Sequence record: OX457022
From: Escherichia phage vB_EcoP-CC1
Direction: 5' to 3' (one strand)
Length of the DNA stretch: 44,532 bases
In this document: in pieces, positions 15,558 through 43,705 of the stretch
Layout of the letters: every line of letters starts with the position of its first letter
How positions within the stretch are numbered: position 1 is the stretch's first letter
Notes under the pieces: generated by a model
What the model was told of the DNA's origin: nothing
What the model saw: only the letters and a program-made list of their open reading frames with translations
The model's database searches: none
Made by a program: the position numbers and the translations under genes

Positions 15558-15601
15558 TATACTCAAGGTTTGTCTCACATGTGAGACATGCCTTTATGAA
15601 T
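15558..15601 (+). promoter_or_regulatory. RNase III-like hairpin with a palindrome apex (TATACTCAAGGT-tTGTCTCACATGTGAGACAt-GCCTTTATGAAT)
   Basis: It is intergenic. The flanks are identical to those of the hairpin at 41961-41996 and resemble the T7 R0.3 segment CTCAAGGGT...GCCCTTTATGAT (recalled). Confidence 0.55.
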
Positions 15602-15621
15602 GACACTGACTAGGAGGTAAC

Positions 15622-18600
15622 ATGGTTGATAGTATTAACCAAAACTGGGTGGCGGTGACTCAACGCAAGTTACCGCCTACCTTCTCTCAAATTGCTGAAG
15701 CTGAGCGTAAGGCTGAAGCCCAGAGAGCTAATGATAAAGTGTTTCAAACAGCATTAGAAAGTGAGTGGGCTTTATATGGCGGACAACGTGCCTATGAACG
15801 CCACACTACAGAGTTTGCTGAACAAGAAGGCTATGAAGTGCCTGAGTCAACTAAGGATGAGTTATCCAAGTTGTATGGGTATGAAATAGCGCAAGACATA
15901 GTTAAGAATGTAAAGTCTCCAGAAGAGTTGCAATTCCGTATGTCTAATGCTGCTGCTGATAAAGACAGAGCAGACATCTTAGCACGTAATGGTTTCACGG
16001 GTTTCAGCGCGCAGATTGCTGCTGGCATCCTTGACCCTGTAGGTTGGGCTGCATCCTTAGTGGCTGCGCCTGTAGCGGGTGCTGTCAAAGTAGGTAGGCT
16101 AGGTAGGATTATCAAGACGGCTGCCTTATCAGGTGCTGAAAATGCTGCATTAGAAGCTATACTTGCACAAGGTGATTACCAGCGAGGGGTTGATGATGTA
16201 CTGGCTGCTGCCGGATTTGGTATGATTATGGGCGGCACTATTGGTGCTGCAACCAGAGAGCGCATAGCCAGTGCTGGTTCTCGTACAGCGGCAGAACGAG
16301 CAGATGCTGTAGTTGATGACTTGGACACTGTAGTAAAAGGTGCTGATGAATTTGACTCGTCTGCGGCTCGTGCTGTACGTGAAGCTATGGAATATGACGC
16401 GTATATGGCAGCGCGTAATTACGAACCACTTCGTGCAAGAGAGGTAGATGCAGACATGGCGATTCTGTCTCACACAGACAATTTGAAAGCCAATGCATCG
16501 GTAAGGATGAGTGCTAGTGAGAAGGGGCAACTGAAGAAGCAGATACGTCAGCTTGAAGCAGAAGCAGCAACACTTAAAGGGAAGAAGATAGACACTGTAG
16601 CGGAAGCTGCGGCTGCTAAGGGTGCACCTAAATCTGCTGCTGACAGATTAGATTTGGATGTTCAGAAGAAAGCATTAGCACGTAGATTTGATGAACCACT
16701 GGCAGACTTACAAGCGCGTCTTGATGAGTTGAATGCTAAATTGTCTCGTGTAAACAATGTAGGCAAAGCCAAGGAAGAGCTTAAGAGATTCTCATCGCTA
16801 TCTCGTGAAGAGCAAATAAAGGAGTTAGGTCTAGACGCACCAGTGCGCAAGGTAGAGATGACCCGTGCCGTGCGAGATGCAATTGACGCAATCCGTGCCG
16901 AGCGTAAGAAGACGCCTACCGAAATACATGCTGAACAAGTCGCAGAAGATGCAATTAAGCAAAGGGCAGACGACTCTGTTGGTGCTAAACGTGTTGAAGG
17001 TTCAGAGATTGCAGGTGAACAGTTTGACCTATCTAAAAACATGGAAGAACTTATGGATGACTTGGCACGAGAAGCATACCAGTCAGAGGTGCGGCCTATT
17101 AATCTTAAGGGTTTAGGTTCAGTGTCTTCTGTGATTCTTAACTCAGAGAATCCTGTGTTCCGAGGCCTAGGTCTTCGTCTGCTTGAAAATGCTCAAGGTG
17201 GTGCATATCAAGGTAAGACAGCTTCTATCTTATCAGATGTGTATGGCAACCTTATTCGTCATGCAGAACGTAACAGATACAATGATGGCTTCTCTCAGTT
17301 CATCAAAGATAATAACCTACGTGCGGTAGACTATCTTAACCCTGCAACGACAAGGGATTTCAATAATCAGATTTATACAGCAATTGTTCGTGGCATACCA
17401 GAAGATACACCTCGTGGTGTTAAACTGGCAGCCGAAGGTATTGCAGATAAGCTCAAGAAAGCACTGGAGATTCGTAAGCAAGCAGGTGAGCGAGGCTTCG
17501 AGGATGTGCAATCTGCTAAAGATTATATTCCCGTTATCTACGATGGTATCAAGATCACAGAGGCAGTTAACAAGTTAGGTAGTAGTGAAGCTGTCATTCA
17601 CTTGCTATCTAAAGGGTATCAGACAGGCAAGTACAAACTTGGCAAGAAAGCTGCTGATGCACTAGCCAAAGTTCAGTATATTCGCGCATCTGACTCCACC
17701 CTCTCTAGTCGTGTTGCATTCGATAGGGTGGTATCCCAGCAGCAGCAGGCTCAATTGATTGAGGATCTGAAGAAAGCAGGAGTACCAGACCATATCATTG
17801 ATAATTTCATTGAAGGTACGGAATTAGCAGAAATGGCTGAATCGGTATCCAATCGAGCTAAAGCTAGTATGGGTATTAATACGCAAGCCGAATATGGCGG
17901 TTTGAAGGTGCAGGATTTGCTTAATACAAACGTAGGCGAGCTAGCTGAGAACTACGGCAAAGAGGCAGCAGGCGGTGCTGCATTAGCTGCCATGGGTTTC
18001 CCCACTCGCCAGTCTGTGCTGAATGCGATAGATGCCGCAGAACGCGCAGGTCGTAATATGGCGGGGTCAAATGCTAAGGCAATCAAACAGCTTAGGGCTG
18101 AGGCAGAAATGCTCAGAGATGCCGTTAAGCTCATTTACGGCAACACTATTGACGCCGACCCTAACTCTGGAATTGTCAGGGGCACTCGACGTGTCCGTGA
18201 GATTACAGGCTTGTTACGATTGGGTCAAATGGGCTTCGCTCAGATACCAGAACTGGCACGTGCAATCTCTAAGATGGGATTAGGTACTGTGCTGAAGTCC
18301 ATACCTGCCACGAAGTTCTTACGTTCAAGGGCGGCTCGTAAGGGAGGAACAGCTCAAGGTGAATTACTTGAACCTGAACTGCGAGAAATGGAGGAACTCT
18401 TAGGCTATATCGGGGAAGATAACTGGCTTACAGGGTGGAACGTCCGTCATGATGAGTTCGGAGAAACTGCTGATAACCTAGGTAAGCTGTCTGCTATTAT
18501 TGATAACGGATTAGCTATGGGTAGTAGAATCAACACAATACTCTCTGGATTTAAAGCAGTACAAGGTGGTTCAGAGAAAATTGTAGCTCGCTCTATCAAT

Positions 18601-19425
18601 AAGAGATTAAAGCAGCACTTGATGGGTGAGAGACAATTACCTAAAGCAGACCTTGAAGAAGTAGGCCTAAGTGAAGATGTCATGAAAAGACTTAAGCGTC
18701 ACTTTGATGACAACCCTCTGTACGCTGAGTACAATGGAGAAAAAGTTCGTATGCTGAACTTTGATGCTATGGAGCCAGACCTGAGAGAGACAGTGGGTGT
18801 TGCTGTGCGAAGAATGTCAGGCCGTCTTATTCAACGTAACTTCATTGGCGATGAAGGTATCTGGATGAATAAATGGTGGGGTAAGGCATTAACGCAGTTT
18901 AAGTCATTCTCTATTGTCTCTATTGAGAAACAGCTAATCCATGATTTACGAGGTGATAAGATTCAGGCTGCACAGATACTTGCATGGTCTACTTTACTAG
19001 GTTATGCATCTTATGCACTACAGATGCAGATGCAAGCGATTGGTAGGGAGGATAGAGACAAGTTCTTGAGGGATAAGTTTGACACACAGAACATCGCTAT
19101 GGGTGTCTTTAATAAACTTCCACAAGTTGCAGGCTTTGGTTTAGCTGGTGATGCTTTGGCAACCTTTGGCCTAATGCCAGACTCCATGATGCAAGCACCG
19201 GGACGCATGGGTTTCCGTCAGCAAGGCTTTGGGGATTTGGTAGCAGGTGCTGGTGTAATAAGTGATACAGTTAATTTGTCACAAGCACTGGTTAAGTATG
19301 CCAGTGGAGACGATGATGTCTCTACGAGGCAGTTGGTAGACAAGGTTCGTCGCCTTGTTCCTTTGGCAAATACTATTGGTGTGGGTCAGATGACTAAAGC
19401 CAGTGTAGATTTATTGGAGGATTGA
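15622..19425 (+). CDS. Internal virion protein C (gp16-position, 1267 aa)
   Basis: Called from size, synteny and the SD TAGGAGG. Confidence 0.8.
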   Translation: MVDSINQNWVAVTQRKLPPTFSQIAEAERKAEAQRANDKVFQTALESEWALYGGQRAYERHTTEFAEQEGYEVPESTKDELSKLYGYEIAQDIVKNVKSPEELQFRMSNAAADKDRADILARNGFTGFSAQIAAGILDPVGWAASLVAAPVAGAVKVGRLGRIIKTAALSGAENAALEAILAQGDYQRGVDDVLAAAGFGMIMGGTIGAATRERIASAGSRTAAERADAVVDDLDTVVKGADEFDSSAARAVREAMEYDAYMAARNYEPLRAREVDADMAILSHTDNLKANASVRMSASEKGQLKKQIRQLEAEAATLKGKKIDTVAEAAAAKGAPKSAADRLDLDVQKKALARRFDEPLADLQARLDELNAKLSRVNNVGKAKEELKRFSSLSREEQIKELGLDAPVRKVEMTRAVRDAIDAIRAERKKTPTEIHAEQVAEDAIKQRADDSVGAKRVEGSEIAGEQFDLSKNMEELMDDLAREAYQSEVRPINLKGLGSVSSVILNSENPVFRGLGLRLLENAQGGAYQGKTASILSDVYGNLIRHAERNRYNDGFSQFIKDNNLRAVDYLNPATTRDFNNQIYTAIVRGIPEDTPRGVKLAAEGIADKLKKALEIRKQAGERGFEDVQSAKDYIPVIYDGIKITEAVNKLGSSEAVIHLLSKGYQTGKYKLGKKAADALAKVQYIRASDSTLSSRVAFDRVVSQQQQAQLIEDLKKAGVPDHIIDNFIEGTELAEMAESVSNRAKASMGINTQAEYGGLKVQDLLNTNVGELAENYGKEAAGGAALAAMGFPTRQSVLNAIDAAERAGRNMAGSNAKAIKQLRAEAEMLRDAVKLIYGNTIDADPNSGIVRGTRRVREITGLLRLGQMGFAQIPELARAISKMGLGTVLKSIPATKFLRSRAARKGGTAQGELLEPELREMEELLGYIGEDNWLTGWNVRHDEFGETADNLGKLSAIIDNGLAMGSRINTILSGFKAVQGGSEKIVARSINKRLKQHLMGERQLPKADLEEVGLSEDVMKRLKRHFDDNPLYAEYNGEKVRMLNFDAMEPDLRETVGVAVRRMSGRLIQRNFIGDEGIWMNKWWGKALTQFKSFSIVSIEKQLIHDLRGDKIQAAQILAWSTLLGYASYALQMQMQAIGREDRDKFLRDKFDTQNIAMGVFNKLPQVAGFGLAGDALATFGLMPDSMMQAPGRMGFRQQGFGDLVAGAGVISDTVNLSQALVKYASGDDDVSTRQLVDKVRRLVPLANTIGVGQMTKASVDLLED

Positions 19426-22702: not shown

Positions 22703-22985
22703 ACATGCAGCCACAGAGGATGAAGTAGGCATCCTTCATGGCGCTATTACGAAGATGTTTAATAAGAAAGCACAGGCTATACTGGACACTATAGAAGAAG
22801 ACCCTGATTCTGCTATGCACTTAGTGTCAGGTAAGGATATTGGAGCCATGTGTAAGTGGGTTTTAGATAATGGCATTACTGCAACCCCTGCTGCACAGCA
22901 GGAAGAATCTAAGTTGTCTAAGCGTCTCAAGGCTATCCGAGAGGCGTCCAGTGGTAAGATCATTCAGTTTACTAAGGAGGATTAA
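22686..22985 (+). CDS. Terminase small subunit (gp18-position)
   Basis: GGAGGA precedes the ATG at 22686, directly upstream of the large terminase. Confidence 0.55.
   Translation: MSVHNKHAATEDEVGILHGAITKMFNKKAQAILDTIEEDPDSAMHLVSGKDIGAMCKWVLDNGITATPAAQQEESKLSKRLKAIREASSGKIIQFTKED
22777..22799 (+). promoter_or_regulatory. Intragenic near-consensus phage promoter (CTATACTGGACACTATAGAAGAA)
   Basis: Positions -13 to +5 are identical to the consensus, and it lies upstream of the large terminase. Confidence 0.5.
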
Positions 22986-24880
22986 TGGCTAAGGCAAGAG
23001 AATCACAAGCGGAGGCTCTTGCCAGATGGGAGATGCTACACGAGTTACAGCAGACCTTCCCTTATACGGCAGAAGGTTTGCTTCTCTTTGCTGATACAGT
23101 TATTCATAATTTAATTGCAGGTAGTCCTCATCTGATTCGTATGCAGGCAGACATCTTGAAGTTCCTATTCTATGGGCACAAGTATCGCCTCATCGAAGCG
23201 CCCCGTGGTATCGCTAAAACTACGCTGGCAGCAATCTATACGGTGTTCCGTATCATTCATGAGCCTCATAAGCGTATCATGGTTGTATCCCAAAACGCCA
23301 AGCGAGCAGAGGAAATTGCAGGTTGGGTGGTCAAAATCTTCCGAGGATTGGACTTCCTTGAGTTTATGCTACCGGATATATATGCTGGCGACCGTGCATC
23401 CGTCAAGGCATTTGAGATTCACTACACGTTACGCGGCAGCGATAAGTCGCCTTCTGTATCCTGTTACTCTATCGAAGCAGGAATGCAGGGTGCTCGTGCT
23501 GACATCATTCTAGCAGATGACGTTGAATCTATGCAGAATGCGCGTACAGCAGCAGGTCGTGCATTACTTGAGGAACTGACAAAGGAGTTTGAATCTATCA
23601 ACCAGTTTGGTGATATCATCTACCTTGGTACACCTCAGAACGTCAACTCAATCTATAATAACCTTCCGGCTCGTGGTTATTCCGTGCGCATCTGGACTGC
23701 TCGCTATCCTTCGGTAGAACAGGAGCAATGCTATGGTGATTTCCTTGCACCTATGATTGTGCAAGATATGAAGGATAACCCAGCATTGCGAACAGGCTAT
23801 GGTCTGGATGGCAACAGCGGCGCTCCTTGTGCGCCTGAAATGTACGATGATGATGTCCTGATTGAGAAGGAAATCTCACAGGGTGCTGCTAAATTCCAGC
23901 TTCAGTTCATGCTTAACACTCGCATGATGGATGCTGACAGATACCCATTGCGCCTAAACAATCTAATCTTCACCTCATTTGGTACAGAGGAAGTCCCTGT
24001 GATGCCTACGTGGAGTAATGATTCCATTAACATCATTGGGGATGCACCTAAGTATGGCAACAAGCCTACAGATTTCATGTATCGACCTGTGGCACGTCCA
24101 TACGAATGGGGTGCTGTTACACGCAAGATTATGTATATTGACCCCGCTGGTGGCGGTAAGAACGGAGATGAGACTGGTGTAGCCATCGTATTCCTGCACG
24201 GCACATTCATTTATGTGTATCAGTGCTTTGGTGTACCGGGCGGATACCGAGAATCTTCCCTGAATCGCATTGTGCAGGCCGCAAAGCAGGCAGGGGTTAA
24301 AGAGGTATTCATAGAGAAAAACTTTGGTCATGGCGCGTTTGAGGCGGTAATTAAGCCATACTTTGAACGAGAGTGGCCTGTGACACTTGAAGAGGATTAC
24401 GCAACTGGTCAGAAAGAACTCCGCATCATTGAGACGCTAGAGCCATTGATGACCGCGCATAGGCTCATCTTCAATGCGGAAATGGTTAAGTCAGATTTCG
24501 CTTCAGTACAGAACTACCCGCTTGAACTGCGGATGTCTTATAGTCTGTTCCATCAAATGTCGAACATCACTATTGAGAAGAACAGCCTTAGGCATGATGA
24601 CCGCTTAGACGCTCTGTATGGCGCTGTGCGTCAATTAACTTCCCAGATAGACTATGACGAGGTTACTCGAATTAATCGCCTCAGAGCGCAGGAGATGCGC
24701 GATTATATACAGGCGATGAATACACCTAAACTTCGTCGGGCTATGCTGTACGGCGATTATGGTGATGAGCGAAGAACAACCAACACCTCCTTAGCGATGC
24801 AGCAGCGGGTTTACGGTCAGAATTGGAGGAGCCGCTCTGGGTCTAGAAATACACTTTCCTCAAGGATTTCAAGGATTTAG
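22985..24880 (+). CDS. Terminase large subunit (gp19-like)
   Basis: It is 631 aa with a Walker A-like EAPRGIAKTT and ILADDVE, plus a strong SD. Confidence 0.9.
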   Translation: MAKARESQAEALARWEMLHELQQTFPYTAEGLLLFADTVIHNLIAGSPHLIRMQADILKFLFYGHKYRLIEAPRGIAKTTLAAIYTVFRIIHEPHKRIMVVSQNAKRAEEIAGWVVKIFRGLDFLEFMLPDIYAGDRASVKAFEIHYTLRGSDKSPSVSCYSIEAGMQGARADIILADDVESMQNARTAAGRALLEELTKEFESINQFGDIIYLGTPQNVNSIYNNLPARGYSVRIWTARYPSVEQEQCYGDFLAPMIVQDMKDNPALRTGYGLDGNSGAPCAPEMYDDDVLIEKEISQGAAKFQLQFMLNTRMMDADRYPLRLNNLIFTSFGTEEVPVMPTWSNDSINIIGDAPKYGNKPTDFMYRPVARPYEWGAVTRKIMYIDPAGGGKNGDETGVAIVFLHGTFIYVYQCFGVPGGYRESSLNRIVQAAKQAGVKEVFIEKNFGHGAFEAVIKPYFEREWPVTLEEDYATGQKELRIIETLEPLMTAHRLIFNAEMVKSDFASVQNYPLELRMSYSLFHQMSNITIEKNSLRHDDRLDALYGAVRQLTSQIDYDEVTRINRLRAQEMRDYIQAMNTPKLRRAMLYGDYGDERRTTNTSLAMQQRVYGQNWRSRSGSRNTLSSRISRI

Positions 24881-29435: not shown

Positions 29436-29724
29436 TCTCGCCCTCGCCCTCGCCGGGTTGTCCCCATAGGGTGGCCTGAGGGAATCCGTCTTCGACGGGC
29501 AGGGCTGATGTACTCCTTGTACTAGCTTAGTAGTACACAAGGGCTGGCCTTTTGTTTTGCCATGTACTAGCAAGGTGGAACGCTGGAGAGCGCCTAGGAC
29601 GGCCTAGGGATGGGCTTAGTGGTGGACAAGGTGATTGCCTTAGTGAAGCCTCTTAGTGCATTCCTGAGGCCATTCAGGGCGTTTATGAGATATTGACAGG
29701 GTGTGCGTGGGTGGGCTATCTGTT
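29436..29724 (+). other. Presumptive terminal-repeat / concatemer-junction region
   Basis: TCTCGCCCTCGCCCTCGCC begins at 29436, CCCCATAGGG lies at 29462-29471 and CTATCTGTT ends at 29724. These parallel T7 left-end features (TCTC..., CCCCCATAGGGGG, CCCTATCTGTT; recalled). The boundaries are not determinable from a collapsed assembly. Confidence 0.45.
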
Positions 29725-30042: not shown

Positions 30043-30058
30043 GTCTAACATGTGAGAC
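30043..30058. repeat. Palindrome family copy, 1 mismatch (GTCTAACATGTGAGAC)
   Basis: Read directly. It is intergenic, 35 bp upstream of the -35 element of the first early promoter. Confidence 0.7.
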
Positions 30059-30092: not shown

Positions 30093-30121
30093 TTGACAAG
30101 GCCATCTCAATGTAATACTAT
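30093..30121 (+). promoter_or_regulatory. Host sigma70 early promoter (TTGACA-17 bp-TACTAT)
   Basis: It has a consensus -35 element, 17-bp spacing and a good -10 element, upstream of the first early ORFs. Confidence 0.65.
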
Positions 30122-31639: not shown

Positions 31640-31703
31640 TGAGCCTATAGCCTACTTAAGTGGGCTATGTGAACACCATTCATTAACTCAAAAGGTGACT
31701 ATT

Positions 31704-32627
31704 ATGACTACTGAAAACACCCTCCTGTCTGTTCGTGAAGCTGCAACCGCTGAGATCAAGCAACACTTAGACAATATCGGCACTTCTTACATCAAAGTTG
31801 GCGCTTGTCTTAATGAGTTACGCGGTGACTTTGAAGGTCAAAAAGACTTTTTGGCTTATGTAGAATCAGAATTTGGAATCAAGAAAGCACAATGTTACAA
31901 GCTGATGAGTGTAGCCCGTGTCTTTGAAGGCGATGATCGCTTTAAAGGCGTGGCGATGCGTGTAATGCTGGCACTTGTTCCTTTCGCTGATGAAAATATC
32001 ATCATGGAGAAAGCCGCAGAACTTGCCGCAGCGGGCAAGCTGGACACTAATGCCGTAAATGCCCTGATTGATCCTAAGAAAGAGACAAAGGCCGAGACGG
32101 TACAATCTAAGGCTGAGGCGGTAAAACCGCAGGAGAATGCGACTGAGGCCGCAGAAACTATGCAAGGACATGCGACCTTTGAGGATTTCATCTTAGAGAA
32201 GGCGAAAGAGGAATTACAAAGTGTGCCGCCAGTAAGTGAGTCGGGTAACGACGAATCCGCACCGTGGGAAGATGAAAGCAAGCCGGAAGCGCCAAAGGCC
32301 GCGCCACTGGATAACACGGCTAACACGGAGAACGCCGCTATGTCTGGCCTACTGGCACAAATTAAGGCACTGACTGAGCAATTACAGGCAGCTAACGACC
32401 GCATCGCCGCCCTAACCAGTGCACGGGAAGGTAAGAAAGCGGCTGCGCCTATGCTTCCGCAGTTTAAATCCTCTTGCTTCTACGCTCGCTTAGGCTTGAG
32501 CGCCGAGGAAGCAACGAAGAAAACAGCAGTGAATAAGGCACGCCGTGAACTGGTTAAACTAGGGTATGGTGAAGGTCATGAGGCATGGCCTTTGATCTCT
32601 GAGGCAGTAGAAGAATTAACTAAGTAA
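31704..32627 (+). CDS. Early protein with a DUF3102-like N-terminal domain
   Basis: AAGGTG precedes the ATG at 31704. IKQHLDNIGTSYIKVGACLNELRGDFEGQKDFLAYVESEFGIKKAQCYKLMSVARVF fits the remembered DUF3102 pattern. The middle is acidic and Ala-rich, and a coiled coil follows. Confidence 0.6.
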   Translation: MTTENTLLSVREAATAEIKQHLDNIGTSYIKVGACLNELRGDFEGQKDFLAYVESEFGIKKAQCYKLMSVARVFEGDDRFKGVAMRVMLALVPFADENIIMEKAAELAAAGKLDTNAVNALIDPKKETKAETVQSKAEAVKPQENATEAAETMQGHATFEDFILEKAKEELQSVPPVSESGNDESAPWEDESKPEAPKAAPLDNTANTENAAMSGLLAQIKALTEQLQAANDRIAALTSAREGKKAAAPMLPQFKSSCFYARLGLSAEEATKKTAVNKARRELVKLGYGEGHEAWPLISEAVEELTK

Positions 32628-35392: not shown

Positions 35393-35408
35393 GTCTCACG
35401 CGTGAGAC
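35393..35408. repeat. Palindrome family copy (GTCTCACGCGTGAGAC)
   Basis: It is a perfect dyad located 2 bp upstream of the promoter at 35411. Confidence 0.9.
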
Positions 35409-35410: not shown

Positions 35411-35433
35411 ATTTACCGGACACTATAGGATAA
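35411..35433 (+). promoter_or_regulatory. Phage RNAP promoter, ACCGG class (ATTTACCGGACACTATAGGATAA)
   Basis: It matches the core consensus and is the first of a tandem pair after the RNAP gene. Confidence 0.8.
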
Positions 35434-35573
35434 CCGTCGGAGACGGAAAGAGAAGGGAAGATAAGGATATAAAGGAAGTAATAGGTATTAAAGGTTGTAT
35501 AGGTTTACCTAGGAATACTTATTACCTTCTTCCTTCCTCTTCTTACTACCTAGAGGAAGGGCAGACCTAGGTT

Positions 35574-35589
35574 GTCTCACATGTGAGAC
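35574..35589. repeat. Palindrome family copy (GTCTCACATGTGAGAC)
   Basis: It is a perfect dyad located 4 bp upstream of the promoter at 35594. Confidence 0.9.
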
Positions 35590-35593
35590 TTCG

Positions 35594-35616
35594 TATTTAC
35601 CGGACAGTATAGATAA
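35594..35616 (+). promoter_or_regulatory. Phage RNAP promoter variant (ATTTACCGGACAGTATAGATAAG)
   Basis: It matches the consensus except for a C-to-G change at -5. It is the second of the tandem pair. Confidence 0.6.
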
Positions 35617-35771: not shown

Positions 35772-35774
35772 GTT

Positions 35775-37763
35775 ATGGCTATTATTCAGAACGTACCGTG
35801 CCCTGCCTGCCAAAAGAATGGACACGATAAATCCGGCAACCATCTTATGATATTTGAGGATGGCGCTGGTTACTGTAACCGTGGTCATTTCCATGATAAT
35901 GGCAAACCTTATTACCATAAGCCAGAGGGCGGCATCGAGATAACCGAATTGCCCATTACTGGCAATATCAAATACACACCTTCTCAATTCAAAGAAATGG
36001 AGAAGGAAGGGAAGATAAGCGACCCTAAGCTACGCGCCATCGCACTTGGTGGTATGCGTATGAAAGACCGTTGGGAGGTCATGAATGAGCAAGAAAGGGC
36101 AGACCAAGAAGCAGAGTGGAAACTTGATGTTGAATGGTTCCTCACGCTTAAGCGTAAGAACCTTGTTTCCCGACACATTCGCGGCGACATTTGCGCATTG
36201 TATGATGTACGTGTCGGACACGATGAAGAGGGTAGAGTCTCGCGGCATTACTATCCACGCTTCGAGAAAGGTGAGCTAGTAGGAGCTAAGTGTCGCACAT
36301 TACCTAAAGACTTTAAGTTTGGTCATTTAGGTAAACTCTTTGGTATGCAAGATCTTTTCGGGATGAATACTTTGTCTCACGTGTTAGACAAGGGAAGACG
36401 AAAGGATTGCTTGCTTATTGTTGGTGGGGAACTGGATGCGCTAGCAGCGCAGCAGATGCTCCTTGATTCTGCCAAGGGTACTAAGTGGGAAGGTCAACCT
36501 TACCATGTATGGTCTGTTAACAAAGGGGAGTCTTGCCTTGAAGAGATTGTGCAGAACCGTGAACACATCGCCCAATTCAAGAAGATTATTTGGGGCTTCG
36601 ATGGGGATGAGGTAGGGCAGAAGCAGAACCAGCAAGCGGCTCGCCTGTTCCCTGGCAAATCTTATATCCTTGAATACCCCTCTGGTTGCAAAGATGCCAA
36701 CAAGGCATTGATGGCTGGTAAAGCCAAAGAATTTGTGGATGCTTGGTTTAATGCAAAGTCATCTGATGAAGTCTTTGGTAGCCAGATTAAATCTATCGCA
36801 TCTCAAAGGGATAAGCTCAAGGCTGCACGTCCAGAACAAGGGCTGTCATGGCCTTGGCCTAAGCTAAACAAGGTAACACTGGGTATCCGTAAGAACCAGC
36901 TTATCATTATAGGTGCAGGCTCTGGTGTTGGTAAGACAGAGTTCCTCCGTGAAGTGGTAAAGCATCTCATCGAAGAACACGGTGAATCTGTAGGTATCAT
37001 TTCTACAGAAGACCCGATGGTCAAAGTGTCCCGTGCTTTTATCGGTAAGTGGATTGATAAGCGTATTGAACTACCGCCAACCAATGACCCGAAAGAAGAT
37101 GGCTACCGTGAGGTGTTCGACTATACAGAGGAAGAGGCTAATGCTGCCATTGATTATGTAGCTGATACAGGGAAGCTGTTTGTAGCTGACCTAGAGGGTG
37201 ACTATTCGATGGAGAAGGTAGAGCAAACTTGCCTAGAGTTTGAGGCTATGGGTATTTCTAATATCATCATTGATAACTTAACGGGGATTAAATTAGATGA
37301 GCGTGCTTTTGGTGGGAAGGTTGGTGCACTTGATGAATGCGTCAAACGAATTGGTACTATCAAAGACCGACATGCGGTTACGATTTTCCTTGTCTCTCAC
37401 CTTACACGCCCTCCGGCAAACCGTACCCAACACGAAGAAGGTGGCGAAGTTATCCTTTCTGACTTCCGAGGCTCAGGCGCTATCGGATTCTGGGCATCTT
37501 ACGCCTTGGGGATTGAGCGTAATACAAGAGCTGAAACGCTTGATGAACGGACTACCACGTACATCTCATGTGTCAAAGACCGCGACCAAGGTATCTACAC
37601 TGGAACCAAGGTCATGCTTAAGGGTGACATTCAAACCGGACGTTTAATGGAACCACAAGCCCGTACTAAGTCATTTGATACAGGTGAAGCAAGGCAACAA
37701 GAAGTACCTGATTTACCGGACACTATAGAAGAGACAACCTTTGACGATGAACAGGAGTTTTGA
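35775..37763 (+). CDS. Primase-helicase (T7 gp4-like)
   Basis: A zinc ribbon (CPACQKNGH...CNRGH) and a TOPRIM region are present. The Walker A motif is GAGSGVGKT and the acidic C-terminus reads ...FDDEQEF. Confidence 0.92.
   Translation: MAIIQNVPCPACQKNGHDKSGNHLMIFEDGAGYCNRGHFHDNGKPYYHKPEGGIEITELPITGNIKYTPSQFKEMEKEGKISDPKLRAIALGGMRMKDRWEVMNEQERADQEAEWKLDVEWFLTLKRKNLVSRHIRGDICALYDVRVGHDEEGRVSRHYYPRFEKGELVGAKCRTLPKDFKFGHLGKLFGMQDLFGMNTLSHVLDKGRRKDCLLIVGGELDALAAQQMLLDSAKGTKWEGQPYHVWSVNKGESCLEEIVQNREHIAQFKKIIWGFDGDEVGQKQNQQAARLFPGKSYILEYPSGCKDANKALMAGKAKEFVDAWFNAKSSDEVFGSQIKSIASQRDKLKAARPEQGLSWPWPKLNKVTLGIRKNQLIIIGAGSGVGKTEFLREVVKHLIEEHGESVGIISTEDPMVKVSRAFIGKWIDKRIELPPTNDPKEDGYREVFDYTEEEANAAIDYVADTGKLFVADLEGDYSMEKVEQTCLEFEAMGISNIIIDNLTGIKLDERAFGGKVGALDECVKRIGTIKDRHAVTIFLVSHLTRPPANRTQHEEGGEVILSDFRGSGAIGFWASYALGIERNTRAETLDERTTTYISCVKDRDQGIYTGTKVMLKGDIQTGRLMEPQARTKSFDTGEARQQEVPDLPDTIEETTFDDEQEF
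36374..36389. repeat. Palindrome family copy, 1 mismatch, intragenic (GTCTCACGTGTTAGAC)
   Basis: Read directly inside the primase-helicase CDS, where it codes LSHVLD. Confidence 0.6.
37711..37733 (+). promoter_or_regulatory. Phage RNAP promoter, ACCGG class, inside the 3' end of primase-helicase (ATTTACCGGACACTATAGAAGAG)
   Basis: It is a full consensus match. Confidence 0.75.
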
Positions 37764-37924
37764 TGGAAATTATTAAACCATTATTAAATATCGGCGTTGA
37801 CATCCTATTCATGCTTATGCTAGCAAACTATGCTGCACGATATGGATTCAAGCCAGCTGTGAAACTTATCGTTGCATCTGGTTTTCTTATGTCAATGTTC
37901 TTTATTGTAACACACCTTATCTAG
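37763..37924 (+). CDS. 53-aa two-TM membrane protein
   Basis: It is coupled by a TGATG overlap, with AGGAG upstream. The sequence is MEIIKPLLNIGVDILFMLMLANYAARYGFKPAVKLIVASGFLMSMFFIVTHLI. Confidence 0.5.
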   Translation: MEIIKPLLNIGVDILFMLMLANYAARYGFKPAVKLIVASGFLMSMFFIVTHLI

Positions 37925-37935
37925 TGTATTTATCA

Positions 37936-37963
37936 GGGCTTGTCTCACATGTGAGACAGGCTC
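37936..37963 (+). promoter_or_regulatory. Extended hairpin with a palindrome apex (GGGCTT-GTCTCACATGTGAGAC-AGGCTC)
   Basis: The core is at 37942-37957. The flanks pair with two G-U wobbles on the + strand RNA only. Confidence 0.6.
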
Positions 37964-37996
37964 TTATTAAGTACATTAAATAACTGGAGATTGATT

Positions 37997-38719: not shown

Positions 38720-38729
38720 GGAGTTAATC

Positions 38730-38918: not shown

Positions 38919-38939
38919 TTGGCAGCTTTATGGTGAAAC

Positions 38940-39137
38940 ATGCAAAATAAACATAGCCTTAAGATGTTTGATGGTCACGAAGACCTGCAAGCACAAATTA
39001 CCAACCAAGCCTTCCTGTTTGCACAGTTAACTATGGCTGAAGCAAAGAAGAACAGCCTTACTCGTGAGCAGATTATCAAGGAAGGTAGCCGTGGTGCTAC
39101 TCGTCGTACCAAGAACCACAGAAGTGGTGCTCGCTAG
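38940..39137 (+). CDS. Hypothetical 65-aa protein with a basic C-terminus
   Basis: It is a track ORF with a weak SD. Confidence 0.4.
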   Translation: MQNKHSLKMFDGHEDLQAQITNQAFLFAQLTMAEAKKNSLTREQIIKEGSRGATRRTKNHRSGAR

Positions 39138-39147
39138 TCGATAAGTC

Positions 39148-39177
39148 AAGGGTTGTCTCACGTGTGAGACAGCCTTT
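39148..39177 (+). promoter_or_regulatory. Extended hairpin with a palindrome apex (AAGGGTT-GTCTCACGTGTGAGAC-AGCCTTT)
   Basis: The core is at 39155-39170. The flanks pair with two G-U wobbles and are followed by CATCAT. Confidence 0.6.
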
Positions 39178-39201
39178 CATCATATTGATTGGAGGTGCAT
39201 T

Positions 39202-39309: not shown

Positions 39310-41842
39310 TTGGAAGAAGGAAGCAGAAGGCCGCATCCTCGTCATGGACGCAGAAGCTAAAGGTCTGCTTGATGCTATCCGCTACGGTCATCGTGAAGAT
39401 GTACACATCATTTGCTGCATGGACTTGCTCACCACTGAGGAGTTCCTCTTCTTCGACCCATATGAGATGCGTGACCCTGAAGCAAGAGAACGCCTGAAGG
39501 AGTGGGAAGGCCATCAAGATGGTGACTTGGTTGACGGTGTTAACTTCCTGAAACACTGTGAAGCTATCGTGTCACAGAACTTCCTAGGGTATGACGGCCT
39601 CCTTTTTGAGAAAGCCTTCCCTGATATCTGGAAAGGTTTTAACTATACCGAAAGGCGCGGCAAGGGCAGACTCCGTGCCGACCTGTGTCCTGTGCGAGTC
39701 ATGGACACGCTGGTGATGAGCCGCCTGTTAAACCCCGATAGACGCCTTCCTCCGCAAGCATATGCCAAAGGTATGGGTAACGTCGCCCCTCATTCAATTG
39801 AGGCGCACGGCATCCGTATAGGACGCTATAAGCCGGAGAATGAGGACTGGTCTAAACTAACTGACCACATGGTTCACCGTGTCCGCGAGGACGTGGCAAT
39901 CGGTCGTGACCTTTTCCTGTGGCTGTACAATGGAGAGTGGACGGAGCATAAACGCCGTGGCGTGAATAAACGCACTGGCCTAGGCATTGAGACAGCCTTC
40001 CACATGGAGTCTATTGTGGCGCTGGAGATGAGCCGTCAGGCAGAGCGTGGATTCCGTCTGGATATTGACAAAGCACTAGCGCGATGCGAAGAACTGGACG
40101 CTAAGATTGATGAGACAGTCGCAGCGTTCCGCCCTCACATGCCTATGCGTATCAAGTCTAAACCTTTTAAACCGGAAGAAAAGAATGAAGTATGCCAACG
40201 CGCAAATGAGTATGGAGCTAGCAACAATATACCTACTGTCCTTGACCCCTCACACTTTCTTCATGCCGAGAGACGAGGAGATCGCAAGACAGTATGGAGT
40301 GTCACTACTAAGTCTGGTGATTGGTCGGCTAGCGTCAAGAAAGACTTTCCTCACCTTAGAGGAAACCGTAATGACACGCCAAGCATCAAGTGGATTGGCG
40401 CTTACTCGCCTGTTACTTTCGAAGAGATTCCCTTGGGTAACAGGGATACAGTTAAGCAAGTGCTCTATGATTATGGATGGAAAGGTGTTGAATTTAACGA
40501 TACCGAGCAAGCGCATCTCGATGAGCATGGCGTATTACCCAAACCTTGGAGTGGAAAGATAAATGAGAAATCCCTTACTTTATGGCAAGAAAGAGCCGCA
40601 CGTGAAGGTAAAACAGTACCAGATTGGTGCTTGGGTATCGCTGCATGGTACATACTCGTATCCCGTCGTGGTCAGATCCTCAACCGTGGTGACGTTGAAG
40701 CCTTCGATCAGAAGGGGGCGTGGCCTTCGCAAGCTGGTGTACGAAAGTGTCGCGGCCTTATACCTGTAGCCTTTAACAAGGAATTAGGAATCAATGCGCA
40801 ACAATACTACGAGAGGTATGGGTATTGGCCTACGTCTGACAAGGATGACGGAGAGTGGCGTGTGCCAGCTATTGCTATTAGTATTGGCACTTCTACGTTC
40901 CGTATGCGTCATCGCAATGTGGTTAATATTCCTGCCCGTGGCTTGTATCCTTTACGTGATTTATTCATAGCAGGTAAAGGTAAGCTAATCCTTGGTTGTG
41001 ATGGTGCAGGTCTTGAACTACGTGTACTTTCTCACTTCATGAATGACCCTGAGTACCAAGATATTGTACTGCATGGCGATATACATACTCATAACCAGAT
41101 GAAGGCGGGTCTTCCTAAGCGTGATATGGCGAAGACATTTATATATGCCTTCCTTTACGGCTCTGGTATAGCTAACCTTGCAGCAGTGTGCGGTGTTACT
41201 GAGGAAGAAATGAAGGAAGTTGTGGCAAGATTCGAGATTGAATTACCATCCCTTGCACGTCTTCGTGAGAATGTTATCGCACAAGGCAACAAGTTTGGAT
41301 ACTTACAAGCACCTGACGGGCATTGGGGTCGCATCCGTATGTCTGGTGGAGAACTTAAAGAGCACACTATGCTTAATGTATTACTCCAAATGACTGGCTC
41401 TTTGTGTATGAAATACGCATTGGTCAAAGCGTTTGCAGTGATGCGCAAGGAAGGTGTGGCCTTAGATAGTATGGGACACCCTTGTGGTGTAGCTAACGTG
41501 CACGATGAAATCCAGATGGAAGTACCTGAAGAAGAGGTATTGTATCTTAACTACGACCTACCTTTCACCTTAGAGGGGTTTGAAACAGAGAAGGCTGCTG
41601 TGAAAGCAGTATTCGATGCAGAGGAGAAACGTGTTCATGTGGATTCTGAAGGACGTATGTGGTCTGCTGCAAATCTCATTAGTGTTGATGCTGCTGCTGG
41701 TGTACTTCATTGCCAGCGTCGTTATCACCGCGCAGGGCATATCATTGCCGACGCCATGACTTGGGCTGGTCAGTATCTGAAGATGCGTTGCCCGATGGCA
41801 GGCGAGTATAAGATTGGCGCAAGCTGGAAGGAAACGCACTAG
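39296..41842 (+). CDS. DNA polymerase (family A, T7 gp5-like) with a 3'-5' exonuclease domain
   Basis: The start MKTIDWKK has GAGG upstream. The exonuclease motif is LVMDAEAKGL. Polymerase motifs are LGCDGAGLELRV, RDMAKTFIYAFLYGSG and NVHDEIQMEV. Confidence 0.95.
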   Translation: MKTIDWKKEAEGRILVMDAEAKGLLDAIRYGHREDVHIICCMDLLTTEEFLFFDPYEMRDPEARERLKEWEGHQDGDLVDGVNFLKHCEAIVSQNFLGYDGLLFEKAFPDIWKGFNYTERRGKGRLRADLCPVRVMDTLVMSRLLNPDRRLPPQAYAKGMGNVAPHSIEAHGIRIGRYKPENEDWSKLTDHMVHRVREDVAIGRDLFLWLYNGEWTEHKRRGVNKRTGLGIETAFHMESIVALEMSRQAERGFRLDIDKALARCEELDAKIDETVAAFRPHMPMRIKSKPFKPEEKNEVCQRANEYGASNNIPTVLDPSHFLHAERRGDRKTVWSVTTKSGDWSASVKKDFPHLRGNRNDTPSIKWIGAYSPVTFEEIPLGNRDTVKQVLYDYGWKGVEFNDTEQAHLDEHGVLPKPWSGKINEKSLTLWQERAAREGKTVPDWCLGIAAWYILVSRRGQILNRGDVEAFDQKGAWPSQAGVRKCRGLIPVAFNKELGINAQQYYERYGYWPTSDKDDGEWRVPAIAISIGTSTFRMRHRNVVNIPARGLYPLRDLFIAGKGKLILGCDGAGLELRVLSHFMNDPEYQDIVLHGDIHTHNQMKAGLPKRDMAKTFIYAFLYGSGIANLAAVCGVTEEEMKEVVARFEIELPSLARLRENVIAQGNKFGYLQAPDGHWGRIRMSGGELKEHTMLNVLLQMTGSLCMKYALVKAFAVMRKEGVALDSMGHPCGVANVHDEIQMEVPEEEVLYLNYDLPFTLEGFETEKAAVKAVFDAEEKRVHVDSEGRMWSAANLISVDAAAGVLHCQRRYHRAGHIIADAMTWAGQYLKMRCPMAGEYKIGASWKETH

Positions 41843-41960
41843 TGGATAGATTAGATATTGTTTGCTTGTTCTTTACCTTCTTTCTTGTCTTTCTTATGCT
41901 TGCTTGTTATGGAAGTATTCAGGTAAATATACCTGATGAAGAGGAAGGATACGACTGAGT

Positions 41961-41996
41961 TATACTCAAGGTCACTTACGAGTGGCCTTTATGAAT
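41961..41996 (+). promoter_or_regulatory. RNase III-like hairpin (TATACTCAAGGT-CACTTACGAGTG-GCCTTTATGAAT)
   Basis: The upper stem AAGGTCAC...GTGGCCTT resembles the recalled T7 R1.1/R0.3 stems. The flanks are identical to those at 15558-15601. Confidence 0.55.
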
Positions 41997-42026
41997 AACT
42001 TACTCCTACTTATTTTGTCTAACATG

Positions 42027-42049
42027 ATTTACTGGACACTATAGAAGGA
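42027..42049 (+). promoter_or_regulatory. Phage RNAP promoter (ATTTACTGGACACTATAGAAGGA)
   Basis: It is a consensus match, directly preceded by the half palindrome GTCTAACATG (42017-42026). Confidence 0.85.
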
Positions 42050-42113
42050 AAGCCTAGGTAATCTAGGTTTATAAGGTAGTATAGGTAATTAAGTAAATAT
42101 AGGAGATATAAAT

Positions 42114-42491
42114 ATGTCTATGGTAACTACTCTGGTATTCGTAGCTCAATACTTTCGTGGCCTGGCTAATAAGTTTAAACAGAAAGCAATCTTTGCAATT
42201 CAAGAACGTATTAATAAAATTGAAGAAGAACAAGTAGATGTAGAGGAACATCGTAGTTCTCAGATGATTGACCTGCATAATCGTCTGTACAAAGATCGTG
42301 ATGAGATGCGTCACCGTCATGCGAAGGAAGTTGAAGACATGCTTAACCGCCATGCGGAAGAACAAGCTAAGTTGGAAACCACTTTCCATGAGGATAAACG
42401 TAGCATCGCTCTAGCACATCAAGCTGCATCGGATAGCCTGAAGAAAGAGATTGTTATGCTGGAGATTGAGTTAGACAATCTTACCAAATAA
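42114..42491 (+). CDS. Hypothetical 125-aa coiled-coil protein
   Basis: TAGGAG precedes the ATG. A hydrophobic N-terminus is followed by charged heptad-like sequence. Confidence 0.6.
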   Translation: MSMVTTLVFVAQYFRGLANKFKQKAIFAIQERINKIEEEQVDVEEHRSSQMIDLHNRLYKDRDEMRHRHAKEVEDMLNRHAEEQAKLETTFHEDKRSIALAHQAASDSLKKEIVMLEIELDNLTK

Positions 42492-42512
42492 TTACTGGAC
42501 ACTATAGAACAA
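42490..42512 (+). promoter_or_regulatory. Phage RNAP promoter (AATTACTGGACACTATAGAACAA)
   Basis: It matches the core consensus and overlaps the stop of the preceding gene. Confidence 0.75.
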
Positions 42513-42547
42513 TAGGTCGGCTTAGTTCGGCCTATGATTGTAAAGTG
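42513..42547 (+). promoter_or_regulatory. 5' leader hairpin (TAGGTCGG...CGGCCTA) plus conserved TGATTGTAAAGTG
   Basis: It has the same layout as 2465-2499. Confidence 0.55.
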
Positions 42548-42557
42548 TTGAACCTTA

Positions 42558-42597
42558 TTGTGCATCTTGCACAACCCGATACCGTATCGGGCTTTCT
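42558..42597 (+). terminator. Two adjacent hairpins, the second terminator-like (TTGTGCA-TCT-TGCACAA; CCCGATAC-C-GTATCGGG then CTTTCT)
   Basis: Both stems are perfect on direct reading. They lie in the leader of the SSB-like gene. Confidence 0.45.
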
Positions 42598-42653
42598 AGT
42601 GAGTACATGCTTGTGCTCAGTACAAAGCTAACTGACAATAGGAGACTAAATAA

Positions 42654-43460
42654 ATGGCACGTGGTGATTTTGATTTTGGTGCTCAAGTTACTAAAGCTGA
42701 AGGTAAAGTATTTAAGAACCCAGAAGTAGGTGATCATGAAGCAGTTATCTCTGGCATCATTCATGTTGGTTCCTTCCAAGACATCTTTAAGAAAGGTAAT
42801 ACCACTGAAGTTAAGAAGCCAGCAAACTTTGTTCTGGTTAAGATTATCCTGATGGGTGACGATGACAAGAACGAAGATGATTCTCGCATGGAACAATGGA
42901 TGGCTGTGCCTCTGAAGTCTGGTGATAAGGCAACACTGACTAAGTTCCTGAATGCAGTTGACCCTAAAGAATTGCTTGGTGGCTTCGATGACTTCATTGG
43001 TGAATGCCTGACTGCAACCATGGTTGGCTCTGGTGATAAGAATGACGATGGCTCATTCAAGTATGTTAACTGGAAGGGCTTTGGTGGTATGCCGGAAAAG
43101 CTGAAGAAACTTGTAATTGCTCAGGTTGAAGAAGAAGGTCTGTCTATGACAGGTCACATTACCTTTGACAAGCTGACCAAAGAAATCCTTGATGATATTC
43201 CTGCTAACTTGGTACGCCAATACTTCCTGAATGAAACACCTCGTGGTAAGAACCTGTCTGTTGCTGGTTCTCACGTAGAAGAAATCATTAAAGCTGCTCG
43301 TGAAGAAGACCCAGAATGGAAGAAGGCTAAGAAGAAAGATGATGAGGATGCTACTCCAGCTAATCGTAAGTCTCTGGATACTGGCGAGTCTGTTCCGCAG
43401 GAAGTGCCTGAAGCAGAAGACGCACCTGCACCGGAAATGGATGAAGACGCGGAATACTAA
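42654..43460 (+). CDS. Putative ssDNA-binding protein (gp2.5-like architecture)
   Basis: The SD is strong. The 268-aa protein has a long acidic C-terminal tail ending ...EMDEDAEY. The call rests on architecture and position, not on sequence identity. Confidence 0.45.
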   Translation: MARGDFDFGAQVTKAEGKVFKNPEVGDHEAVISGIIHVGSFQDIFKKGNTTEVKKPANFVLVKIILMGDDDKNEDDSRMEQWMAVPLKSGDKATLTKFLNAVDPKELLGGFDDFIGECLTATMVGSGDKNDDGSFKYVNWKGFGGMPEKLKKLVIAQVEEEGLSMTGHITFDKLTKEILDDIPANLVRQYFLNETPRGKNLSVAGSHVEEIIKAAREEDPEWKKAKKKDDEDATPANRKSLDTGESVPQEVPEAEDAPAPEMDEDAEY

Positions 43461-43469
43461 GGAGGGATG

Positions 43470-43688
43470 ATGAAGGTACAAATCGTAACCCTGCACTGCA
43501 AGAAGGGCATTACAACCCTTGGCGGAAACACTTTTCACTCCTTCTCTGAAGGGGAGACATATTCTGACCTGCACTACATCTGGCGCGATGGGCAGCACGT
43601 GGTGAACTACAGCGACCCCGCTACAGGGAAACGCCACGGCGTATCTCTTCCGGCGCACGACATTGCTCAGGTGAACACAGTTTTATAA
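43470..43688 (+). CDS. Hypothetical 72-aa protein
   Basis: AAGGAGGG lies upstream. The ATG at 43467 or at 43470 could be the start. Confidence 0.5.
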   Translation: MKVQIVTLHCKKGITTLGGNTFHSFSEGETYSDLHYIWRDGQHVVNYSDPATGKRHGVSLPAHDIAQVNTVL

Positions 43689-43689
43689 A

Positions 43690-43705
43690 GTCTCACATGT
43701 GAGAC
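43690..43705. repeat. Palindrome family copy (GTCTCACATGTGAGAC)
   Basis: It is a perfect dyad located 2 nt after the stop codon and 15 bp upstream of the promoter at 43721. Confidence 0.9.

Follow-up and report, generated by a model that had tools for sequence, protein, structure and literature searches.

A conserved family of short palindromes in SP6-like phages and an early protein predicted to bind it

Palindrome copies and their slots

The sequence analysed here (the window, 44,532 nt of Escherichia phage vB_EcoP-CC1, record OX457022) carries a dispersed 16-bp palindrome, GTCTCAC-NN-GTGAGAC, and, just upstream of the RNA polymerase gene, an early gene for a 310-amino-acid protein (31695..32627, + strand) that we propose as the reader of the palindrome. 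Apart from a permuted start point, the window matches Escherichia phage vB_EcoP-CC2 (OX638290.1) at 100% identity. CC2 is a Vectrevirus, with K1E, K1-5 and SP6 among its relatives; its genes all lie on the + strand, and its physical left end is near 29,500. An exact search of the window returns the six perfect copies given in a preliminary description of this DNA (15572, 35393, 35574, 37942, 39155 and 43690), and none of 100 dinucleotide-preserving shuffles contains one. A search at up to two mismatches also recovers the two one-mismatch copies described there, at 30043 (GTCTAACATGTGAGAC) and 36374 (GTCTCACGTGTTAGAC), against 0.15 expected, and the centres of the copies are AT, GC or GT as stated. 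With an AT centre, the Vectrevirus site reads TGTCTCAC-AT-GTGAGACA. Isolated GTCTCAC half-sites are not enriched (4 observed against ~4.8 expected), so the enriched unit is the palindrome.

The eight sites of CC2, none assigned to a strand, lie from 2 bp to more than 1 kb off the nearest promoter. The left-end copy (slot 1; 30043..30058, GTCTAAC-AT-GTGAGAC, with one variant half-site) ends 34 nt before the -35 hexamer in the first match to an early sigma70-type promoter (TTGACA-17-TACTAT, 30093..30121, + strand); all lineages from Nerthus to CC2 keep this slot, at 11-67 nt 5' of TTGACA. Two bare copies precede the two promoters after the RNA polymerase gene. The one with centre GC (slot 2; 35393..35408) stands 3' of the terminator-like hairpin after that gene and 2 bp upstream of the phage-polymerase promoter P1 (ATTTACCGGACACTATAGG, 35411..35429, + strand), and has syntenic copies in relatives. 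The one with centre AT (slot 3; 35574..35589) stands 5 bp upstream of promoter P2 (ATTTACCGGACAGTATAGA, 35595..35613, + strand), at the position equivalent to T7 R1.1, between phi1.1A and phi1.1B. The copy inside the primase-helicase gene (slot 4; 36374..36389, GTCTCAC-GT-GTTAGAC) encodes L-S-H-V-L-D. Copies at hairpin apices follow this gene (slot 5; 37942..37957), precede the DNA polymerase gene (slot 6; 39155..39170) and lie between two internal-virion-protein genes (slot 8; 15572..15587, in a T7 R1.1-like hairpin). The remaining bare copy (slot 7; 43690..43705) directly follows the stop codon of the preceding gene and lies 15 bp 5' of a phage-polymerase promoter (43721..43739, + strand), itself upstream of the 122-amino-acid gene at 43793-44161. 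Among the promoter distances given previously (2, 4 and 15 bp), the first and last stand and the second is 5 bp, since the second ATTTAC... promoter starts at 35595 and not at 35594. The half copy reported as fused to the promoter at 42027, GTCTAACATG (42017..42026), does abut it and is kept in five Vectrevirus genomes; GTCTAAC half-sites as such show no enrichment, and this one may be what is left of a full site, or may match by chance.

The positional conservation among relatives on which the preliminary description had staked its reading is present: the motif holds the same slots across the SP6-like phages. Eight syntenic slots are found in at least five genera, six other Vectrevirus genomes carry the motif in the same eight slots as CC2, and Vectrevirus, Zindervirus, Klebsiella phage VR702, Tuodvirus and Acadevirus have 8-10 copies per genome at the same slots. 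Between strains, the central two bases vary at a given slot and the arms are constant. The arms read GTCTCAC in Vectrevirus and in Erwinia, Vibrio, Aeromonas and Pseudomonas relatives; the SP6, Klebsiella, Lelliottia, Proteus and Pectobacterium lineages have GTCCAAC or GTCTAAC, and an RCIP0053-like clade has GTCTAG or GTCTAC. SP6 contains none of the exact sequences of CC2 and has GTCTAAC-NN-GTTGGAC or GTCCAAC-NN-GTTGGAC at the same slots, where perfect GTCCAAC/GTTGGAC copies number 8 in Klebsiella VR702, 6 in Lelliottia phD2B and 6 in Proteus Pm5460, five of the last with a 3-nt centre. RCIP0053 has 6 copies of GTCTAG-N4-CTAGAC, and Pseudomonas phage Nerthus (Colwellvirinae, RNA polymerase ~42% identical) has 8 copies of GTCTCAC-N3-GTGAGAC, with the same arms as Vectrevirus. 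The constancy of the arms at every slot within a lineage, and their joint switch between lineages, favours the earlier suggestion that they are read sequence-specifically. Most copies in the distant relatives RCIP0053 and Nerthus are bare, which makes the bare form the ground state; the two contexts distinguished before, hairpin apex and bare, are both seen, but as states of one element that is basically bare across the wider phage group.

Several occurrences stand apart from this pattern. RCIP0053 carries, beside GTCTAG-N4-CTAGAC, a second dispersed palindrome family, GTACTAG-N4-CTAGTAC, at 8180, 15056 and 23543 (and 14893) of locus L134. The Zindervirus phage Kenya-K11 has a Vectrevirus-type GTCTCAC-AT-GTGAGAC (6620-6635 in L128) directly 5' of an inserted HNH-like gene, suggesting that the site travels with mobile gene cassettes. 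The pre-DNA-polymerase slot of K1-5 (9570-9585 in L122) holds GTCCAAC-GT-GTTGGAC between Vectrevirus-type flanks, with an SP6-type gene downstream, which points to recombination near the conserved hairpin. Two IMG/VR loci, L038 (at 3414) and L070 (at 2100), which are 30-35 kb contigs from isolate genomes, place a flanked GTCTCAC-AC-GTGAGAC directly 5' of the promoter gatttactggacactat, an arrangement absent from the complete genomes examined. IMG/VR scans with exact 16-mers gave mostly single chance matches on unrelated contigs. A full-text literature search found no match to the palindrome sequences, nor to SP6 or K1-5 together with RNase III or a palindrome; the original genome papers (Dobbins 2004, Scholl 2004) lay outside its scope and may mention the repeat.

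We pooled the copies of 12 genomes and 69 oriented IMG/VR loci, giving ~160 distinct copies. Their arm combinations are GTCTCAC/GTGAGAC (61), GTCCAAC/GTTGGAC (41), GTCTAAC/GTTGGAC (27), GTCCAAC/GTTAGAC (14), GTCTCAC/GTTAGAC (13), GTCTAAC/GTGAGAC (4) and GTCTAAC/GTTAGAC (1). Mismatched arms (C:A, C:T or A:G) occur in 24 of 147 classified copies, bare and in-gene copies among them, and one lineage has the C:A orientation at several slots. At clearly flanked slots, the arms pair by Watson-Crick or plus-strand G-U pairs in 34 of 38 copies; three of the four exceptions are the copy inside the primase gene. The 2-nt centre is R-Y in 139 of 142 copies, and the 3-nt centre is R-N-T, with A-N-T in 13 of 14. 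A or T stands before GTC in 157 of 163 copies and after GAC in 153 of 163, and these two flanking positions are often non-complementary (A..A 45 times, T..T 22 times). Judged from the pooled copies, the unit is W-GTCYMAC-R, present twice in two-fold symmetry with half-site centres 10-11 bp apart. An orientation bias of G-U pairs was considered as evidence for action in RNA and rejected: the 15 versus 3 of the first 12 genomes fell to 27 versus 14 once the IMG/VR loci were included, with one lineage using the opposite orientation.

An early protein that covaries with the arms

The candidate reader is a homologue of K1-5 gp6 and SP6 gp7 and belongs to phrog_4571, whose function is unassigned. 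It is among the few non-structural proteins of unassigned function common to all lineages, including RCIP0053 and Nerthus, and is present in about 213 phage records, every one of them from an SP6-like group. Two Studiervirinae controls have neither a homologue (best tblastn E 0.27) nor a repeated palindrome: they contain 2 and 4 palindromes in total, each arm once, against up to 6-8 perfect copies of one arm in reader-positive genomes (6 in CC2, 8 in VR702 and in Nerthus).

The N-terminal region of the protein has the motif F-x-I-K-K-A-Q-x-Y-X1-L-M-X2-V, where X1 is residue 69. Vectrevirus and Nerthus have K at this residue, the GTCCAAC group N or H, and RCIP0053 R. An IMG/VR search with the alignment of the protein yielded 36 loci, each comprising the gene and up to 10 kb of flank per side, in which K accompanies GTCTCAC in four lineages, N or H accompanies GTCCAAC in at least seven, and R accompanies GTCTAG or GTCTAC. 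All lineages with GTCTC sites have K: Vectrevirus, Erwinia phages, Vibrio phages phi-A318, Vp670 and D529, Aeromonas phage HJG, Nerthus, the metagenomic contigs L293 and L294, and Klebsiella phage KL01. N or H is just as general among the GTCCAAC lineages, as is R among those with GTCTAG or GTCTAC. For three of these K-type proteins (HJG, L293 and L294; one of the two contigs only 30% identical), the site type was predicted before the DNA was read, and GTCTCAC was found in all three. D529 has 8 GTCTCAC copies, and KL01 has 6 copies of TGTCTCCTATAAGAGACA, in which GTCTC is kept. Marinomonas phage CPP1m combines a diverged helix with a different palindrome, GTTCGAGATCTCGAAC.

Across 1,697 ungapped columns of the candidate reader, the RNA polymerase and the primase-helicase, residue 69 is the sole column that is invariant in the 11 K-type lineages and disjoint from the 12 N-type lineages (3 R-type lineages were also in the scan). 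A tree of the RNA polymerase joins Vectrevirus to the Klebsiella VR702 and SP6 groups; the Proteus, Lelliottia, Pectobacterium PP1 and Klebsiella Koku-like phages, all N-type, fall outside that group in 200 of 200 bootstraps, and the K-type Erwinia phages lie beyond them all. Since Vectrevirus is nested in the N/GTCCAAC clade, its K/GTCTCAC state is most simply a reversal, with changes at ~7 sites. On this distribution, the association between residue 69 and site type is not just shared ancestry, and ~8 16-bp sites seem to have changed along with one residue on three or more occasions, one of them a reversal. The preliminary description had offered the protein at 31704-32627 as a candidate binder, and the covariation of its predicted recognition-helix residue with the palindrome type strengthens that choice.

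The switch of site type also reaches into coding sequences, where it forces N/H changes in both the RNA polymerase and the primase. Where GTCCAAC lineages encode (L/M)-S-N-V-L-D-K-G in the primase copy, Vectrevirus encodes L-S-H-V-L-D-K-G: exchanging A for C in the arm costs an N-to-H replacement, in step with the genus-wide arm change. The matching change in the second arm would give a TGA stop codon and is absent. The copy in the RNA polymerase gene codes for R-V-S-H in the GTCTCAC lineages L281, L284, L293 and D529 and for R-V-S-N in Kenya-K11 and phD2B; Nerthus has its polymerase copy at a different codon from these two, and a third set of lineages has it at the Kenya position. Copies in genes are kept at synonymous positions, and their gap-free alignment means that they are not insertions. 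Some lineages carry a copy inside the candidate reader gene itself (RCIP0053, 11232 in L134; L288, 10489; Vibrio phage D529, 4540 in L296).

An AlphaFold2 model of the protein, built on 26 sequences, has an all-helical N-domain (residues 8-125, predicted local distance difference score ~90) in which helix 49-60, a turn at G61 and helix 64-77 follow one another, the last being the predicted recognition helix with K69. A disordered acidic linker, a long helix (208-246) and a confident J-domain-like C-terminal domain come after it. The match of the modelled N-domain to the ParB/KorB helix-turn-helix fold is moderate. Foldseek against the PDB returned nothing significant, and sequence searches against Pfam, NCBIfam and the PDB were negative; in Pfam, no family matches at E 0.01, and up to E = 10 only unrelated coiled-coil families appear, at E 0.35 or higher. 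None of the ten window proteins without assigned function that we screened against Pfam has a significant match; the lone match, which scores below its family cut-off (E 0.0019; 18.8 bits, cut-off 22.6), belongs to a protein other than the candidate reader. The label 'DUF3102-like' given to the protein earlier finds no profile match even at E = 10, and is echoed only by weak structural matches in BFVD to two viral proteins annotated DUF3102 (E 0.019 and 0.42). An N-terminal ParB/Srx CTPase domain is not evident either, the model being all-helical over residues 5-125 and Pfam giving no match, and a sliding-clamp mechanism is therefore not expected.

Our preferred reading, to which we give a probability of roughly 0.62, is that the palindromes are duplex-DNA sites, operator- or parS-like, for a dimer of this early protein with its putative ParB/KorB-like fold. 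The dimer would bind the palindrome as double-stranded DNA, each monomer setting its recognition helix on one half-site, W-GTC-Y-M-AC-R, with residue 69 reading half-site positions 4-6: Lys for GTCTC, Asn or His for GTC(C/T)AA and Arg for GTCTA(G/C). The palindrome would also be transcribed as a hairpin, extended at three intergenic slots into T7-type RNase III-like processing hairpins; a hairpin built onto a DNA site at these slots would explain how invariant arms come to sit between covarying flanks. Both the binding and its output are what we infer from sequence. The output is most likely KorB-like: the protein would be a global regulator or recruiter anchored on DNA, with the first early host-type promoter, the first middle promoters and the origin-like region behind the RNA polymerase gene as its targets, and could act through its C-terminal domain and long flexible linker. 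Sites precede the first middle promoters downstream of the polymerase gene by 0-18 bp in phages from Colwellvirinae to Molineuxvirinae, and this variable spacing and the flexible linker fit such a regulator or recruiter better than a rigid activator or repressor. Broader still is the proposal that the SP6-like phages (Molineuxvirinae, Colwellvirinae and relatives) possess an unrecognised system in which a CTPase-less early protein of ParB/KorB fold serves 8-10 palindromes and has changed specificity on several occasions through one helix residue (K, N/H or R), with all sites following; we put this at about even odds.

Several observations weigh against the preferred reading. The promoter spacing of 0-18 bp counts against a simple activator or an occluding repressor. 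The centre is 2 or 3 nt depending on the lineage, and both lengths occur within Pm5460 and within Vibrio phage D529, which a rigid dimer would not tolerate. The link between reader and palindrome is correlational at the sequence level, and the covariation of residue 69 with the site rests on ~3-4 evolutionary switches. SP6 (H69) and Kenya-K11 (N69) both use mainly GTCTAAC/GTTGGAC. The all-lineage column test is confined to the left 13 kb, and a genome-wide scan with a single outgroup is non-discriminating, with 46 of 7,150 columns showing a similar pattern. The whole-chain predicted template modelling score is 0.39. Specificity contacts of KorB lie partly outside its helix-turn-helix, so that residue 69 can only be presumed to contact bases.

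Hairpins, and possible roles as replication signals or mobile repeats

Three copies form the apex of two-tier RNA hairpins with the architecture of T7 RNase III sites, all on the + strand. The hairpin at 37922..37978 consists of a lower stem, an internal loop and a 13-bp upper stem (folding z = -6.0), and that at 39135..39191 likewise has a 13-bp upper stem (z = -5.0); the hairpin at 15552..15608 is weaker (z = -2.0) and has the frame CTCAAGG...palindrome...GCCTTTATGAATGAC, as in T7 R1.1 (ACTCAAGGTCATTCGCAAGAGTGGCCTTTATGATTGACC). Folding of an eight-genome alignment keeps the two-tier structure at all three, with compensatory double changes at 5 of 24 pairs around 37942, at 9 of 23 pairs around 39155 and at 6 pairs around 15572. 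Flank pairing in this context, G-U pairs included, had been described from the window alone and is borne out by both analyses. Only these three copies have the ~20-bp hairpin with an asymmetric internal loop that marks a T7-type RNase III site, and the bare copies at 35393, 35574, 43690 and 30043 fold only as a 6-bp core. RNase III needs a helix of ~11 bp by the cleavage site, of which the bare copies fall short, and no sequence is conserved in the distal box of its substrates (PMC3867540). Processing by RNase III would account for the flanks but not for the invariant arms; as a candidate role for the element, it survives in the hairpins around three slots and fails as the whole account.

It is unlikely that the element acts in RNA only, through host RNase III processing and stabilisation of transcript 3' ends, with the bare copies degenerate or minimal. 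The two-tier hairpins with their compensatory changes in flanks and lower stems, the T7 R1.1 frame CTCAAGG...GCCTTTATGA of the 15572 hairpin, and the SP6 arm variant, which makes a U-G wobble in plus-strand RNA at six copies, would all suit such a role. Yet the bare stem of 6-7 bp is under the RNase III minimum and the distal box shows no sequence conservation (PMC3867540), and structure alone would permit copy-by-copy compensatory drift, whereas one arm sequence occupies all copies. At several slots, one lineage has its arms in the orientation that gives a C:A mismatch; the GTCCAAC group has only 1 copy in the compensated U-A state, and the W and R-Y constraints are independent of pairing. 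Moreover, no promoter of the incoming genome precedes the left-end copy, and host RNase III does not vary between hosts as the arms do. The copies are not intrinsic terminators, defined as a GC-rich hairpin with an immediate U run; a lax scan passes only 35393 and 35574, owing to the AT-rich promoter start that follows them, and the other copies have no U run, nor does SP6 at the same slots. Rfam has no match in the window, and folding of the P1-to-P2 transcript for a larger structure around 35574 gives z = -1.1.

Equally doubtful in our estimate is another factor, or a single-stranded DNA hairpin or cruciform, with the palindrome as a priming or helicase-loading signal near an origin or as a site for an endonuclease VII-type resolvase. 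Most sites do cluster in the replication-gene region, and two flank the origin-like repeats behind the RNA polymerase gene, a region that corresponds in position to the T7 primary origin. A centre of 2 or 3 nt fits a hairpin easily, and sites just upstream of strong promoters lie where transcription makes negative supercoiling. Mismatched arms in bare slots, however, would break a 7-bp hairpin. The enzymes at hand make poor readers as well: no column of the RNA polymerase or of the primase tracks the site type, and palindrome type is independent of promoter type, the GTCCAAC palindrome being common to three promoter types. We rejected the phage RNA polymerase as reader on these grounds. The primase was likewise rejected on its columns and because the SP6 enzyme reportedly recognises GCA (Tseng et al. 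2000), which is absent from the motif. A host factor is an unlikely reader because site type does not follow the host.

The view of the palindrome as a small element that has spread, whether a selfish or duplicative repeat of repetitive extragenic palindrome or miniature inverted-repeat transposable element type or one homogenised by gene conversion with no trans-acting reader, draws on the near-identity of copies within a genome, the 1-nt centre insertion in five of six Pm5460 copies, the GTCTCAC-type copy with the HNH cassette of Kenya-K11 and the K1-5 GTCCAAC copy between Vectrevirus-type flanks, but it is very improbable and we set it aside, since the slots are syntenic across subfamilies and not variable, copies in genes lack indels and are not insertions, no transposase is annotated, flanks differ by slot so that 16 bp of common homology is little for converting inner positions, and the primase copy matches the consensus only as far as its reading frame permits, which looks like selection on single point changes. 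Among the three candidates put forward in the preliminary description, the operator of a dimeric protein fits best, with arms constant within lineages and switched in concert between them.

Neighbouring features and related systems

Other features lie close to the sites. Following the copy at 43690, the segment 43706-43739 holds an inverted copy of the promoter core upstream of promoter 43721, which forms a hairpin (GGTGTCCAGT/ACTGGACACT) with the promoter core itself. The same arrangement occurs in SP6 (GTGTCTC/GGGACAC, ~14275-14305 in L123) and Pm5460 (GTGGTCT/AGACCAC, ~15043-15070 in L126), and in each phage the inverted core is altered to match its own promoter sequence. Between the two post-polymerase promoters, 35428-35573 contains many (T)AGG repeats at a spacing of ~10-11 bp and has a purine-rich and a pyrimidine-rich stretch at opposite ends. 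RCIP0053 has a tandem array of a 10-bp unit, CTATAGTAAG (15194-15370 in L134; 18 adjacent-unit matches in the palindrome scan), and L287 has tandem GGGACGTCAT at the equivalent region (6737-6790). The segment 35428-35573 may be a replication origin, at the position of the T7 primary origin.

A hairpin without the palindrome, CTCAAGGTCACTTACGAGTGGCCTTTATGAATAAC at 41968-42000, differs little from T7 RNase III site R1.1; CC2, K1-5, K1E and SP6 all carry it unchanged, and Klebsiella VR702 has an almost identical one. Transcripts from two further promoters begin with hairpins (2442-2500 and 42490-42550) that end in ...GCCCTTGATTGTATAG and ...GGCCTATGATTGTAAAG and resemble the T7 RNase III sites found just after promoters. 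Two middle proteins, encoded at 42654-43460 and 43793-44161, have acidic tails with a terminal aromatic residue (...DEDAEY and ...AEEEF). Tails of this kind contact DNA polymerase in T7 gp2.5 and gp4, and the 268-amino-acid protein may be a single-stranded-DNA-binding protein. In the single-outgroup scan, the large terminase (22985-24880) has 13 columns that set Vectrevirus and Nerthus apart from five SP6-type genomes, far above any other protein, an excess that may reflect gene exchange.

Gene control in the T7 supergroup has been described in terms of two polymerases, promoters, terminators, RNase III sites and a few polymerase inhibitors, and the group is not known to rely on any recognition other than that of promoters by polymerases. 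If true, binding of the palindromes by the early protein would supply a missing layer of control, a sequence-specific protein with genome-wide sites, for the branch of SP6, K1-5 and K1E, to which therapeutic K1 phages belong and from which SP6 RNA polymerase comes. It would add control over the early-to-middle switch or the organisation of the origin in the T7 supergroup and give the conserved early gene phrog_4571 a testable function. It would also constitute a natural, replicated case of coevolution between a transcription-factor-like protein and its whole set of sites, with selection on the sites visible as amino-acid changes in two essential enzymes. For engineering, sites and protein are handles on these phages and features to spare in recoding.

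Among known systems, the T7 R sites share the plan of lower stem, asymmetric internal loop and upper stem with the hairpins at three slots here, and R1.1 shares the frame of the 15572 hairpin. On the T7 map, R sites often adjoin phage promoters, as the palindromes do here. T7 conserves the stem near the cleavage site and varies the apex; the present hairpins have an invariant apex between variable flanks, and five of eight copies lack long stems. The PeSL cassettes of T4-type phages are dispersed units of stem-loop and promoter at gene-module boundaries, possibly homology patches for module exchange. The pre-polymerase slot of K1-5 and the HNH cassette of Kenya-K11 hint at exchange of this sort, but the present repeat is only 16-18 bp long, occurs also in genes and off promoters, and covaries with a protein.

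Further parallels come from KorB and chromosomal ParB. KorB of the IncP plasmid RK2 has short palindromic operators in about ten copies per replicon, at variable distance from promoters: adjoining them, far off or inside genes. CC2 likewise has several palindromic sites at variable promoter distances. KorB also autoregulates, and the candidate reader is an early protein with one site just upstream of the early promoter that drives it. The two differ in that no CTPase domain is evident here, dimerisation would use the long helix after the acidic linker, the C-terminal domain is J-domain-like, no KorA-like partner is identified, and the replicon is a strictly lytic phage of the T7 supergroup. 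Site sequence and spacing differ as well, the KorB operator OB being TTTAGCGGCTAAA (PMC11790492).

The consensus parS of ParB (Spo0J) is a 16-bp palindrome, TGTTTCAC-GTGAAACA (PMC7383237), whose half-site is one base off TGTCTCAC, alike at 7 of 8 positions. The 8-bp half-sites of parS abut, whereas 2-3 extra bp separate them here. No CTPase domain is evident and no sequence homology is detectable in the candidate reader, a segregation role is not expected in a lytic phage, and no ParA partner is annotated in the CC2, K1-5, SP6, K1E or Pm5460 records, in which no profile search was made. A few parS copies cluster near the origin, a further likeness, and parS can lie in genes, including spo0J itself in Bacillus subtilis, just as some lineages here have a copy inside the candidate reader gene. 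Another likeness is that a few residues switch specificity in ParB and Noc.

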